64,000 nt of DNA from an uncultured Chlamydiales bacterium. GTDB taxonomy: Bacteria > Chlamydiota > Chlamydiia > Chlamydiales > Rhabdochlamydiaceae. Below, in pieces: positions 18,001 to 21,000 of the stretch (its first letter is position 1; each line of letters starts with the position of its first letter). The DNA lies in contig OY969554.1 of NCBI GenBank assembly GCA_963700985.1, forward strand, positions 480,001-544,000. Direction: 5' to 3'. The position numbers are program-made.

Positions 18001-21000
18001 AGTAAATCTTTCGGAGTCGGAACACTTTCTCGACCCGATTCTCTGGTTGAAGAAGATGGCGAGATTGTCTTAGGCGACTTCTTTTCTTCACGGAATATAG
18101 ATTTAAGTGGCACAGTAGCTCTCAATATGGACAGCCGCCCACACTCTAGACGTGCATCGACCGCTTCCTTTGATCCATTGGCCGCAAAAGTCGAGAGCAG
18201 AAGCATTTCCAGAAATCCCTCGACTGAGCTGACTCCGCGCCGCCTTCCGGAGCGGCCAGTATCAGTCGCTGCCGCTGTTCAACCAGCTAAGCGAGCGCCT
18301 TCAGCTGACATGAGAAAACTAGTTGATGAATTGATGGCGACTAAACCAGCAAAACCAGCAGATGTTGTATTGGATGTAGCTGTCGATTAATCTTTAAAAA
18401 AAACGATACGGGTTCATTGGCCTTGAGCTTAATCAAGGCCTTTGATACTGTTTCTCTTTCTTTGGATATCGCGGGGTGGAGCAGTGGTTAGCTCGTTGGG
18501 CTCATAACCCAAAGGCCGGAGGTTCGAATCCTTCCCCCGCTATTTTTTCTATACGTCACCTGTCGGGCGGTATAGCTCAGTTGGTTAGAGCAGCGGAATC
18601 ATAATCCGTTTGTCGTTGGTTCGAATCCGACTACCGCTACTTTCAAATCTTTTACACAATTAGTCTAGGTAGAGAAGCACAATAGTTTGTGCTTCGTTCG
18701 CGATTCGAAGTGAGCGGCCTGCGTGCCGCGAACCGGCGGGGGACCCGGAACCGACTACCGCTACTTTCAAATCTTTTACACAATTAGTCTAGGTAGAGAA
18801 GCACAATAGTTTGTGCTTCGTTCGCGATTCGAAGTGAGCGGCCTGCATGCCGCGAACCGGCGGGGGACCCGGAACCGACTACCGCTACTTTCAAATCTTT
18901 TACACAATTAGTCTAGGTAGAGAAGCACAATAGTTTGTGCTTCGTTCGCGATTCGAAGTGAGCGGCCTGCGTGCCGCGAACCGGCGGGGGACCCGGAACC
19001 GACTACCGCTCGCGCGCGCTCCAAAAAGAAATTGCCCTCAGCTTAGTTTGTAGACACTCTCTAAATATAATGTAAATTATTATTCGAATAATTGAATTTT
19101 TAAACGTATAATGTTACGTTTTATTAAAAATTAATCGGGGTTAGATCATGGTCACAGCAACAAGCACTACGCGCATACTTTACTTTCCACCTCAAGGAAA
19201 GCCGGATCCTAAAGAGCCACGTCCTGAAAGTGGCCCTGACACACGCCCGCGTGTTCTTCAACGTGGTTCGGATCATTGGTGCACATACCGGGCCTTTAAT
19301 GATTTGCGAGAGCGCTTCAAGGCGCCAAACACAGAACATCTACAGGCTCGAAAATTTGAAAAACTTGCCTCATCGTGCAGAAAAGAATACGCGGCTCTTT
19401 ATCGCAAATTTCCAATAGCTGTTGGCTACGAACTTCCGGGCCCTGACAGAACGTTTTTGATCTCGATAAATAAACTTCAGTTTCGCTCGAATCCGAATAT
19501 ACCACCTCTACTTACAAGTAAGTTCCATGTTCCTTCTGCTGCTTTATCAGAATTCCTCGATCAGGATAAATTCAGTAATTTATATGAATTTTTACAATTT
19601 CAAATGAAAAAAATGGAGTGTGAAGTTCATGAGGGGTTTTTGAAGTCAATTGATCTGGATCCTAAAGTTCTATTTGGACAACTTAAAAAAGAAGATCCTG
19701 AGCTTTGTGAAGTTGGATACAGCCGAAAAGGCTACGGTGAGCTCATCCCTAAAGAGAAGGCTCAATTATTAGATGCATTTACAAGACGGGCCTTAGCTGA
19801 GAGATTTGGGATTCGGGTTTCAAGCTGGAAACTTAGTGACTCATTTTCAGTTTTTATGACTAAGTTTGAAAAAGAAGGTCCCTTTGCAGTTGGTGGACAT
19901 TTTGCTAGCGTCTATTACACGGTTCCAGCAACGGATCTAAACATAAAAGTTGCAGGGCGGAAAGTCTTTGCATGGAAGAAGGGGGATCCTACCAATCCTA
20001 ATGCCGGTCTGCATATGATCCTTCTAGTAGGTCCAGAAAAAAGTGGTAAGGGCGATTTCGTCTATTACATCAATACATGCGATGATAGCGATCCTGCTAA
20101 TCAAGACAAACAACGCCTCTATGTAATGACTTATAAATGCTTGATCGAGAATGTTTTTGATTGCATTGGTTGGCAACGTCCACATGGGGCTCTGACTCCG
20201 TCCTCTATTGGCTTTGCATGGTGCTCAGACAAGAGTTTTGCTTCTACTGTCCCTAAAGAACATAAAGAACGGGAGGCTGAACGCAAAACACCAGCCGTCT
20301 CTTTAGAGAAAGTCTAATGGCGCTAAGTGTTGTAACCGGTAGCGCTTTTGTAATTACATCATTGCTGCAAGTTTTACCGACGGCAGTCGTAGCGACGTGT
20401 GCGGAAAATTTCTTGGGGATTTGCGACGACAATGACGATGTATTCTTGTCTGTTGCAGAGTCAGCTCAGAAAGCTGCATTTTCAACATTTGCAAGTTTTA
20501 GAGCTTTTGGCGCACGGCAAGCATCCAGAATCTCCGCTCTTTTTTCTAGACAGGTTCCAGAAGAAGAGATCTCGACCTCTGATGTTTCAGTAGCTAAACC
20601 TGAAGTGAAAATCATGTGTCATATTACCTATGGTTTTGGAGACATTAAAGGGTGTATAGACATAGGAAATTTTTTCAATAGAAGCATACCTGAGGTCAAC
20701 GCTCGGCTTGTATTCGATGAGGAATCCCGAGAGAAGGTCTTCTCGTTTGATCCAGTAATCGCCAGATCTGCTGAATATTACCGATCTTATGGGGAATTTT
20801 GCGCAAAGTCGCATGCACGCTTGTTTGTCGACTATCCCATAAATGCGATGAAAGAAGTGGAGGGAAAGGATAGCTTTATGGCTATTGCTGAAGACGAACG
20901 TCCACACTTAGGATTAATGGAATATGGCTTGGAACAAACACAAGCAGTAGTTTTTCGGATGTATTTGCAACAAATGGAAAACAGACAAGTGCAAATTTTC

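Follow-up and report, generated by a model that had tools for sequence, protein, structure and literature searches.

Structured modules bounded by tRNA 3'-end copies behind tRNA and tmRNA genes of Chlamydiales: candidate attachment sites of tRNA-targeting islands

INTRODUCTION

That genomic islands sit at tRNA genes is textbook knowledge, and the non-coding DNA at their borders is commonly regarded as a short repeat plus protein-binding arms. In the ICE literature, integrase-less cis-mobilizable elements (CIMEs) reportedly accrete in tandem at the att sites of tRNA and tmRNA genes. We know of no tRNA-site integrase for which recombination of folded DNA has been shown and, to our knowledge, few small RNAs are known from the chlamydial phylum.

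Here we analyze a window of 64,000 nt from an uncultured Chlamydiales bacterium (assembly GCA_963700985.1, contig OY969554.1), in which the putative island border is a conserved, folded module of 105 to 150 nt with covarying hairpins and both an inverted and a direct copy of the tRNA end. More than half of the genomes in one chlamydial family carry the module, which multiplies there into arrays. Tentatively, we place the 124-nt units of the window in a large family of non-coding modules under structural constraint, linked to site-specific recombination at the tRNA and tmRNA genes of Chlamydiales.

RESULTS

Three units in tandem behind a tRNA(CAU) gene

The array of the window lies directly 3' of the second of two tRNA(CAU) genes (Table 1). 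Tandem Repeats Finder detected it at positions 18627-19010, with a period of 124, 3.1 copies, and 99% matches. A single base, in the P2 loop of unit 2, distinguishes the three units, and in unit 3 the tRNA-end copy is one base shorter (..CCGCT); the repeat stops there. The fold predicted for unit 1 has an energy of -41.2 kcal/mol (z -2.5). The motif at the solo repeat end that follows the array, TAGTTTGTAGAC plus ACTCTCT, occurs 32 times in the genome of the window (G000) when up to one mismatch is allowed, often as facing pairs ~220 bp apart. When the DNA of the locus was compared with 40 relatives, no match was found outside the tRNA and module region.

Table 1. Features of the tRNA(CAU) locus (window positions)
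Feature	Position	Strand	Evidence or remark
First tRNA(CAU) of two	18469..18543	+	ARAGORN; Rfam tRNA 65.8 bits; no module directly behind; context only
Second tRNA(CAU), array directly 3'	18566..18640	+	ARAGORN; Rfam tRNA 68 bits at 18566-18639
X, last 17 nt of second tRNA(CAU)	18623-18639	+	Part copied and complemented by the modules
Unit 1, 124 nt	18641..18764	+	R1 match, 71.5 bits
Unit 1, spacer	18640-18665	+	
Unit 1, degenerate complement of acceptor 3' strand	18666-18672	+	
Unit 1, hairpin P1	18674-18695	+	
Unit 1, complement of T stem and T loop	18696-18709	+	
Unit 1, strand GAAGUGA	18707-18713	+	
Unit 1, hairpin P2	18714-18729	+	
Unit 1, strand GAACCGG	18730-18736	+	
Unit 1, hairpin P3	18737-18747	+	
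Unit 1, copy of tRNA 3' end	18748-18763	+	
Unit 2	18765..18888	+	Layout of unit 1 shifted by 124 nt; one G-to-A in P2 loop; R1 match, 71.4 bits
Unit 3	18889..19012	+	Layout of unit 1; R1 match, 71.5 bits
Solo end of MITE-like repeat	19040..19062	+	TAGTTTGTAGAC plus ACTCTCT; unrelated to the module family
Two ORFs, 389 aa and 548 aa	19148..21963	+	Variable flank 3' of the array; no Pfam family (Pfam scan)

A branched fold maintained by compensatory change

All other loci named in an initial annotation of these modules were read and were recovered by an independent covariance model of our own (R1), which bears out that structured modules exist at tRNA and tmRNA genes. Each module has the same order of elements: first the tRNA 3' end as its reverse complement, interrupted by hairpin P1; then the strand GAAGUGA(A), hairpin P2, and the strand GAACCGG; then hairpin P3; and finally the tRNA 3' end once more, as a direct copy. 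The fold is branched, with three hairpins inside two arms. The two joining strands around P2 are invariant in the family, purine-purine mismatches are conserved, with a possible tandem G-A/A-G beside P2, and the conserved core has no T run behind it. Across 120 distinct sequences, 97.6% of the P1 and P2 cells pair, 11 of 12 pairs have changed on each side, and covariation scores 0.587, compared with at most 0.084 for slid partners; 96% of the cells are Watson-Crick pairs and 1.4% are G-U. P3 covaries alongside P1 and P2.

The term "tRNA-mimicking", under which the modules had been introduced, is apt for their topology, which runs from a 7-nt acceptor complement through a 2-nt linker, P1, and a 1- to 2-nt linker to a T-stem complement. 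It goes too far for the helices, since in 17 aligned modules the acceptor-like helix pairs in 63% of cells and the T-like helix in 78%, and since the 5' arm is an inverted 3' end; ARAGORN called the true tRNAs at these loci and no module, and the Rfam 15 tRNA model gave no match on the modules (10 loci, E ≤ 1 to 10). Two details required correction. The 5' arm does not copy the tRNA 5' strands; it is the tRNA 3' end in reverse complement, with the T loop as part of it. The loop AMAGUU, proposed as a family feature, is absent from both tRNA-Lys modules of the genome, reads AAUAGUU in the units of the window, and is variable across the family.

Copies of the tRNA end and the spacer

The match between module and tRNA extends to sequence. 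Among 66 first modules from many genomes, the 3' copy agrees with the tRNA end at 17 of 17 bases in 22 and at 13 or more in 42; the null, given by the ends of other tRNAs, has a mean of 9.1 and a 95th percentile of 12. The earlier statement that most modules end with a copy of the tRNA 3' part thus stands. The 5' arm complements its own tRNA at 7.3 of 9 positions, versus 5.0 of 9 for other tRNAs. The tRNA 3' end brackets each module as a direct repeat, with one copy lying in the tRNA itself and the other in the last 15 to 20 nt of the module. A direct repeat that bounds the inserted DNA is, along with a tyrosine integrase gene beside the tRNA-proximal repeat, a mark by which att repeats of tRNA-integrating elements are recognized, and the repeats flanking each module are an attL/attR arrangement. 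In the spacer between tRNA and module, 49 of 65 distinct first modules have at least five consecutive T, and 25 of the 65 have a GC hairpin plus a T run.

Strand preference was assessed by counting G-U against A-C, with an equivocal outcome. In P1 and P2, the count is 19 to 5, which favors the tRNA-sense strand; in the arms, where placement is crude, it is 24 to 32; and in the minimum free energy (MFE) folds of 41 modules, G-U pairs number 76 on the antisense and 50 on the sense strand. Both strands of these 41 modules fold about equally well (-48.8 versus -47.6 kcal/mol), with the sense fold slightly more stable in 30. The two strands of the window unit behave alike (-41.2 versus -39.9 kcal/mol).

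Distribution across tRNA genes and genomes

R1 gave 13 matches in G000 at E < 1e-3: three at tRNA(CAU); two each at tRNA-Leu(CAA), tRNA-Lys, and tRNA-Ser; and one each at a Phe-type orphan, the tmRNA, tRNA-Tyr, and tRNA-Leu(UAA). Two further, weak matches lie at 1081833 and 885915. The canonical core occurs nine times in this genome, and a variant core adjoins the tmRNA module on the opposite strand. The previously reported count of 9 of 151 genomes in an order-wide sample was reproduced with R1, but besides G000 that sample includes only six genomes from the family of the window; in this family as a whole, 76 of 129 genomes have matches. Modules were found in at least 22 genera from several families. 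They follow 15 or more kinds of tRNA or tmRNA, always on the strand of the tRNA. A same-strand tRNA lies upstream of 124 of 147 matches (within the fetched locus), in agreement with the position directly 3' of tRNA and tmRNA genes first assigned to them. Seven of the eight loci are co-oriented with replication; this orientation is set by the tRNA genes and is uninformative alone.

Near-identical, cargo-less units form head-to-tail arrays of 3 to 6 or more. The tRNA(CAU) locus is filled in G000 and two relatives (G003 and G018) and empty in G001, of the same genus, and in six other genera. At tRNA-Lys, a module was present in 6 of 6 genomes examined across two genera, with turnover of its hairpin sequences. 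A module fragment was also found inside a ~290-nt MITE with terminal inverted repeats, which has nine copies in genome G066. Modules themselves were considered as MITEs and rejected: apart from this fragment, they have no terminal inverted repeats and, in G000, are not dispersed.

A pattern scan of a genome collection returned at least 121 loci, the pattern being loose and the hits mostly chance ones in unrelated phyla. Ten of 15 loci inspected were true modules; the remaining 106 were sorted only with a crude filter on the word AMAGTT, which misses true modules. Among viral contigs, none of 24 pattern hits was a module (best R1 score, 23 bits), and a search of a plasmid collection matched the tRNA-Phe part only, with no module. 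No Rfam 15 family matched the modules; the best non-tRNA hits were microRNA-type hairpins that scored far below the gathering level and fell on flanks or palindromic spacers. Full-text literature searches turned up no account of modules of this kind, and the element appears to be undescribed. The Waddlia genome paper (PMC2878342) mentions repeats >200 bp in general terms.

Gene blocks and recombinases at module loci

At four loci in relatives (L264, L265, L266, and L268), a tRNA is followed by modules, genes, a further module, and further genes, which supports the statement that the modules border variable DNA. Base-by-base reading of L264 and L266 showed tRNA 3' halves in front of the internal modules; these halves begin with the anticodon stem-loop, except for one that begins with the variable arm. 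Such halves are the signature of serial site-specific integration, and blocks of accessory and defense genes, accreted one after another, are set apart by modules and displaced tRNA 3' halves. These blocks are multigenic, with genes in both orientations, and encode AbiE, HepT, a PDDEXK nuclease, RhuM, and a STAND ATPase, which is typical island content. In G000, modules are confined to positions behind tRNAs or tRNA remnants; the Phe-type orphan comes 7.3 kb after tRNA-Phe and is preceded by a Phe 3' remnant.

The initial annotation had seen no link to a recombinase. This holds for G000, where scans of the flanks found no recombinase beside any of the eight module loci, where the two integrases of non-Xer size lie apart, in a module-free 18-kb tRNA-Met island, and where searches for RVT_1, rve, and TnpB-type domains gave no match. 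No integrase was found next to the modules of L264-L268 either. One rare case departs from the rule: at tRNA-Phe of genome G065, a tyrosine integrase gene, at positions 1371-2462 of locus L269, starts ~220 nt after the tRNA-end copy of the module, this being the only module-integrase pair examined among 76 model matches in five genomes of one genus. The P1 loop had been suspected as a crossover site from four breakpoints; the idea was dropped because the G000 tRNA-Ser breakpoint is explained by an unrelated MITE end and the G066 tRNA-Phe breakpoint abuts an IS3-type transposase.

DISCUSSION

We favor, at a probability of roughly 0.4, the reading in which the modules, themselves without cargo, are attachment sites of islands that target tRNA genes, with selection acting on a single-stranded fold. 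The module would be the conserved non-coding arm of the attachment region in such islands; it would persist after integrase and cargo are lost, or where none were carried, and would multiply by recombination between tRNA-end repeats, a behavior that may resemble that of CIMEs. Support comes from the tRNA-end copies, the fit of the 5' arm to its own tRNA, and the use of at least 15 tRNA kinds; from the serial layouts, the Phe orphan, the island cargo, and the G065 integrase; from the variable presence at the tRNA(CAU) locus, the unit arrays, and the hairpin covariation; and from the T runs in the spacer, the equal folding of both strands, and the paucity of G-U pairs. The selected form would be single-stranded, because hairpin sequences vary freely while pairing is kept, and we think a folded DNA strand more likely than RNA because tRNA and module are mostly set apart by a T run or a complete terminator. 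In the folded strand, the tRNA-end copy and its complement could rebuild a duplex image of the target, purely by analogy with integron attC and CTX attP. Against this reading count the G000 loci that lack a recombinase and the single module-integrase pair examined. Viral contigs and plasmids yielded no module, so that no free or transferable form is known, and for the module kept at every tRNA-Lys locus examined, old vertical inheritance fits as well as mobility. Pairing of 63% in the acceptor-like arm is also poor for a duplex mimic.

Several features that weigh against an attachment site would suit an RNA. The invariant strands, the purine-purine mismatches, and the placement of P1 exactly at the acceptor/T-stem boundary resemble an RNA junction, and the excess of G-U over A-C in P1 and P2 points to the tRNA-sense strand. 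The modules might then, as the main rival reading has it, be genes for a tRNA-like non-coding RNA, made as a precursor by read-through from the tRNA promoter. Each unit would form an acceptor/T-like minihelix in which P1 replaces the D and anticodon arms and the P2/P3 domain replaces the T loop; tRNA-processing enzymes would excise the units, and the junction would bind protein or carry an activity. Linker lengths and helix order that match tRNA topology, the covariation of all three hairpins, the slightly stabler sense fold, and the retention of the tRNA-Lys module despite turnover of its hairpin sequences are in keeping with this proposal. It nevertheless seems less likely, given the T runs and terminator-like hairpins ahead of so many first modules, the lack of a common promoter on reading the sequences by eye, and the prospect that a co-transcribed 5' arm would unfold the upstream tRNA. 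The arms pair incompletely, G-U pairs are very scarce for an RNA and in MFE folds more numerous on the antisense strand, and neither an Rfam family nor the tRNA model matches the modules. A programmable attachment site, whether of single-stranded DNA or RNA, seems unlikely to us. Its base-paired arms would image the 3' end of the targeted tRNA, its invariant three-way junction would be a handle for a recombinase or nuclease acting in trans, and retargeting to a new tRNA would need new arms only; this would explain why a single core can operate at 15 or more different tRNA and tmRNA genes, and why gene blocks that lack an integrase gather there.

Also unlikely is a third account, in which the modules are palindromic repeats, selfish or neutral, that play no part in integration. 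The unit would have arisen once, spread to tRNA flanks, and multiplied by slippage or unequal crossing-over, serving perhaps also as a transcription insulator between a strong tRNA promoter and foreign genes; nearby islands would merely reflect that tRNA genes are integration sites anyway. Unequal crossing-over between tRNA-end repeats is indeed all that arrays of identical units need, a piece of module rides in the G066 MITE, T runs and terminators flank the units, and G000 has neither the mobility domains sought nor a module-linked recombinase. Yet neutral repeats would not be expected to maintain three hairpins by compensatory change, or junction strands without variation, in at least 22 genera from several families; arms that match their own tRNA call for a targeting or copying process, and an insulator has no need of a tRNA-end copy. 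That the array is an assembly artifact or a chance repeat is hardly credible. Tandem repeats are prone to misassembly, and the copy number of three could be wrong; the architecture is, however, shared by seven further G000 loci and by 75 further genomes of the family, and identical pieces in short metagenome contigs from three runs, one of them possibly the source sample and hence not independent support, cross the tRNA-unit and unit-unit junctions without differences.

Should the modules be folded recombination sites or guide-like elements, they would represent a new way of aiming DNA at tRNA genes, one that explains how integrase-less defense islands move in obligate intracellular bacteria. 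Should they be RNA, they would form a new, abundant class of tRNA-like RNA. On either reading, they provide a precise marker for island boundaries and for the annotation of chlamydial genomes and metagenome-assembled genomes.

Comparison with known systems

The likenesses to described systems are partial. The hammerhead core shares a three-way junction, a 7-nt strand, a helix flanked by GA and GAA, which may form tandem sheared pairs, and a short third strand; the invariant CUGA of the hammerhead is absent, the module strand reading GAAGUGA, and no Rfam ribozyme matched the modules at E ≤ 1. Likenesses to the hammerhead, kink-turn, and T-loop, noted by eye, were rejected, as the invariant bases do not fit. 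REP/BIME elements, MITEs, and palindrome derivatives of IS200/IS605 are likewise short, abundant hairpin repeats, sometimes arrayed and dependent on an enzyme in trans. Unlike the elements of this group, the modules stand strictly behind tRNA genes, have arms matched to the tRNA, and lack terminal inverted repeats and a target-site duplication.

With the tRNA-like domains of tmRNA, YrlA, viral 3' tRNA-like structures, and mascRNA, the modules share an acceptor/T-like coaxial helix without an anticodon arm and an origin in, or position next to, tRNA sequence. They differ in the two-hairpin domain in place of the T loop, the imperfect arms, the 5' arm made from an inverted tRNA end, and in being known from DNA alone; the sole hit of the Rfam YrlA model (E 0.25) fell on tRNAs and none on modules. 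Integron attC sites and CALINs, clusters of attC that lack an integrase, offer a parallel in imperfect palindromes of ~60 to 140 nt with conserved structure and variable sequence, set in same-orientation arrays between gene blocks, with new blocks entering at the proximal end. The folded single-stranded attP of CTX phage is also comparable, in that a folded strand there imitates the duplex target, as it may do here. In contrast to attC, the module is branched rather than a single long hairpin, its target is a tRNA gene, and the blocks are multigenic and in both orientations. No attC boxes, R''/L'' and L'/R' (RYYYAAC ... GTTRRRY), were seen on reading the module consensus by eye.

Compared with the att regions of tRNA-targeting islands, for which no such features are known to have been reported, the modules stand apart in their covarying three-hairpin core, their inverted copy of the tRNA end, and their occurrence as cargo-less units of 105 to 150 nt in arrays of up to six or more. 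With island attL/attR and CIMEs they have in common a repeat of the tRNA 3' part that flanks the insert, serial accretion that displaces tRNA 3' halves, and a cargo of defense and accessory genes in blocks that mostly lack an integrase.

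An array of tRNA-linked modules in the window

Behind the second of two adjacent tRNA(CAU) genes, Tandem Repeats Finder reported an array with a period of 124 nt (3.1 copies, 99% matches, 18627-19010), and a single base is the whole difference among its three units. Pieces of the array, including tRNA-unit and unit-unit junctions, were identical in short contigs of three metagenome runs, one of which may be the source sample. The window covers positions 480001-544000 of a single 2.07-Mb contig, which has a G+C content of 44.8% and encodes 38 tRNAs and one tmRNA. The cumulative GC skew of the contig peaks at ~500 kb and reaches its minimum at ~1.54 Mb; therefore, the array (contig near 500000, window near 20000) likely adjoins the replication terminus. 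The two ORFs behind the array (389 and 548 aa) matched no Pfam family, and nothing in 40 relatives matched them at the DNA level.

Coordinates of the array and of related features in the same genome
Feature	Frame	Position	Strand	Remark
tRNA(CAU), first of pair	window	18469-18543		ARAGORN, confirmed by Rfam
tRNA(CAU), second of pair	window	18566-18640		ARAGORN, confirmed by Rfam; array starts at its end
Unit 1	window	18641-18764
Unit 2	window	18765-18888
Unit 3	window	18889-19012
Solo MITE-like end	window	19040-19062		directly behind array
Two ORFs	window	19148-21963		389 and 548 aa
Variant core (CGAAGTGCGGAGCAGGTGAGC..CGAACCGG)	contig	85616-85653	+	opposite strand to tmRNA and its module
18-kb island	contig	168388-186738		module-free; bounded by tRNA-Met(CAU) and a 68-nt partial copy of the same tRNA
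Tyrosine integrase gene	contig	171760-172245	+	in tRNA-Met island
Tyrosine integrase gene	contig	185486-185974	-	in tRNA-Met island
Solo MITE-like end	contig	309027		within second Ser module

Module architecture and its constraint

All loci listed in the initial annotation, together with ten more from named chlamydial or PVC-labelled records, were read and share one plan. The tRNA is followed by a spacer (mostly a T run or full terminator hairpin, frequently palindromic), the acceptor 3' strand in reverse complement, a 2-nt linker AG, hairpin P1, a linker G or GU, and, again in reverse complement, the T-stem 3' strand with part of the T loop (ACTCGAA against loop TTCGAGT, for instance, or AATCGAA against TTCGATT). 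Next come the strand GUGA(A), hairpin P2 with closing pairs G-C and C-G, the strand GAACCGG, hairpin P3 in a short (CGGG..CCCG, CCC..GGG) or long (CUUUCRGGACG..CGCCWGAAAG) form, and a direct copy of the tRNA from its T loop to a few bases beyond its 3' end. Where the spacer is palindromic, each tRNA end or copy is also able to pair with the following module's arm. A variant core, GUGMGGAGCAGGUGAGC..GAACCGG, was found in sense orientation at the Leu-UAA module and the Phe-type orphan of this genome and inverted beside the tmRNA module.

A covariance model of the module (R1, built from 16 sequences and spanning P1 to GAACCGG) gave 13 matches at E<1e-3 in the genome, every one at an initially annotated locus, and two weak ones besides. 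Over 82 fetched loci of relatives it gave 147 matches, in a run that left out nine loci of relative G066 (eight with MITE-borne copies, one with a doubtful match). A same-strand tRNA or tmRNA lay upstream in the fetched piece for 124 of the 147, and 66 of them, the first modules, began ≤45 nt from it. These followed tRNAs for Phe (16), Lys (11), CAU (7), Leu-CAA (7), Leu-TAG (6), Ser-TGA (6), Tyr (3), and Leu-TAA (3), with one each behind Thr, Ser-GCT, Ser-GGA, Ser-CGA, Arg-TCT, the tmRNA, and a Lys-like tRNA with anticodon TTA. ARAGORN called a TTA tRNA ("tRNA-Stop") at L155 of relative G044, with a 3' end equal to that of tRNA-Lys and a module behind; this is possibly a tRNA-Lys that has mutated or become suppressor-like.

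The module 3' copy was identical to the last 17 nt of the tRNA in 22 of 66 first modules and matched at least 13 in 42, against an average of 9.1 (95th percentile, 12) for the ends of other tRNAs, which confirms that most modules end in a copy of the upstream tRNA's 3' part. In its acceptor part, the 5' arm is complementary to the module's own tRNA at 7.3 of 9 bases, where other tRNAs reach 5.0; the T part gives 6.1 versus 4.8. Across 120 distinct sequences, 97.6% of 1347 cells in P1 and P2 paired, 11 of 12 pairs had changed on both sides, and the covariation score was 0.587, where slid partners reached at most 0.084 and shuffles 0.138. In 17 short-P3 modules, pairing was 92% in P1, 100% in P2, 88% in P3, 78% in the T-like helix, and 63% in the acceptor-like helix. 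The hairpins are therefore under strong structural constraint, and the tRNA-derived arms are looser. The original description of structured modules 3' of tRNA genes is confirmed.

Distribution

The initially reported 9 of 151 genomes in an even sample of the order was reproduced, yet the spread is far wider than then seen: within the window's own family, which contributed only six sample members besides this genome, R1 matched 76 of 129 genomes, spread over 22 of the 40 genera; a genome held at most 31 matches, and some arrays reached six or more units. Five positives in the order sample belong to other families; their six loci read were all tRNA-linked and built to this plan, although the core diverges in some. 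Among the matches listed, named records with true modules carried Rhabdochlamydia, Simkaniaceae, Parachlamydiales, and Chlamydiae labels, and some metagenome-assembled genomes were labelled Verrucomicrobia. No Rfam family matched the modules, none was found in viral contigs or plasmids, and a full-text literature search found no description of such modules; the element appears undescribed so far.

Genomic islands and mobile elements

The CAU-tRNA locus is empty in G001, of the same genus, and in six other genera, and is filled by three units each in relatives G003 and G018, where the spacers differ and P1 shows a compensatory change. At tRNA-Lys, modules occur in this genome and in 5 of 5 examined from another genus, and hairpin sequences, spacers, array forms, and the DNA behind all vary between genomes. 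Four larger loci of relatives run, in a single orientation, from tRNA through module(s), gene block, module(s), and gene block. Reading two of these loci base by base showed tRNA 3' halves in front of the internal modules, starting at the anticodon stem-loop or, once, at the variable arm; repeated site-specific integration into a tRNA gene classically leaves this trace. At L264, two copies of the combination tRNA 3' half plus module, the tRNA-proximal one and a distal one, look near-identical by eye as far as the point where the tRNA-end copy begins. Cargo of the blocks behind modules includes AbiE, HepT, PDDEXK nuclease, RhuM, STAND ATPase, permeases, and IS elements. The Phe-type orphan, preceded by a Phe 3' remnant, lies 7.3 kb behind tRNA-Phe, with broken AbiE genes and a helicase between; HepT-MNT lies behind the Leu-UAA module. 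The alternation of blocks and modules and the tRNA halves support the earlier suggestion of island borders.

AbiEii-type nucleotidyltransferase and HepT/MNT toxin-antitoxin genes recur behind modules (L140 in G066, L227 and L225 in this genome, L265 in G071, L264 in G072). Relatives of both are reported to act on tRNA acceptor ends; the recurrence may be coincidence, such genes being common island cargo.

The genome has four tyrosine recombinases, as initially annotated: two are Xer-sized and two lie in the module-free tRNA-Met island. It had no RVT_1, rve, or TnpB-type domain match. In the five genomes covered from a single genus, the pair of module and integrase examined was that of G065, where the integrase gene starts ~220 nt past the module's tRNA-end copy. 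Elsewhere, a 509-aa protein encoded 0.5 kb behind a broken Phe module (L140:9980-11509, G066) has a TnpB/Cas12f-type zinc-ribbon domain, and a Leu-TAA block (L266:4999-7202, G104) contains an IS607-type serine recombinase next to a 531-aa protein. A separate MITE-like family with ends ..GGTCTAGTTTGTAGACACCCTCT is represented in this genome by 32 motif occurrences with ≤1 mismatch, often as facing pairs ~220 bp apart; two solo ends are listed in the table. In G066, a MITE of ~290 nt, whose terminal inverted repeats read TATACCGGAAATGATTCAAAAGTTGG ... CCAATTTTTGAGTCATTTTCGGTATA, contains a tRNA-like 3' remnant, the complement of this remnant, P1, the core, and P2; its nine dispersed copies (loci L141, L142, L145-L148, L151, L152) include none near a tRNA.

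DNA strand or RNA

Hairpin sequence drifts freely but pairing persists, a behaviour not expected of a double-stranded protein site; this speaks for some single-stranded form. That the modules are an RNA gene ranks second, and we regard it as rather unlikely. Invariant junction strands and a G-U to A-C ratio of 19 to 5 in P1/P2 would fit a transcript, as would the exact placement of P1, which has the 7-nt acceptor complement on one side and the T-stem complement on the other, like the D and anticodon arms of a tRNA. However, G-U makes up just 1.4% of P1/P2 cells, both strands are near-equal in folding, and among 65 distinct first modules a GC hairpin plus T run separates tRNA from module in 25 and at least five T in 49; a co-transcribed 5' arm would also compete with the tRNA's own acceptor and T stems. 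The proposed tRNA mimicry is supported only in part, by the placement of P1 and less by the loosely pairing arms.

We rank first, at a probability of about 0.4, a DNA-level, recombination-linked element. By analogy with attC and CTX, the module would act as a folded single DNA strand.
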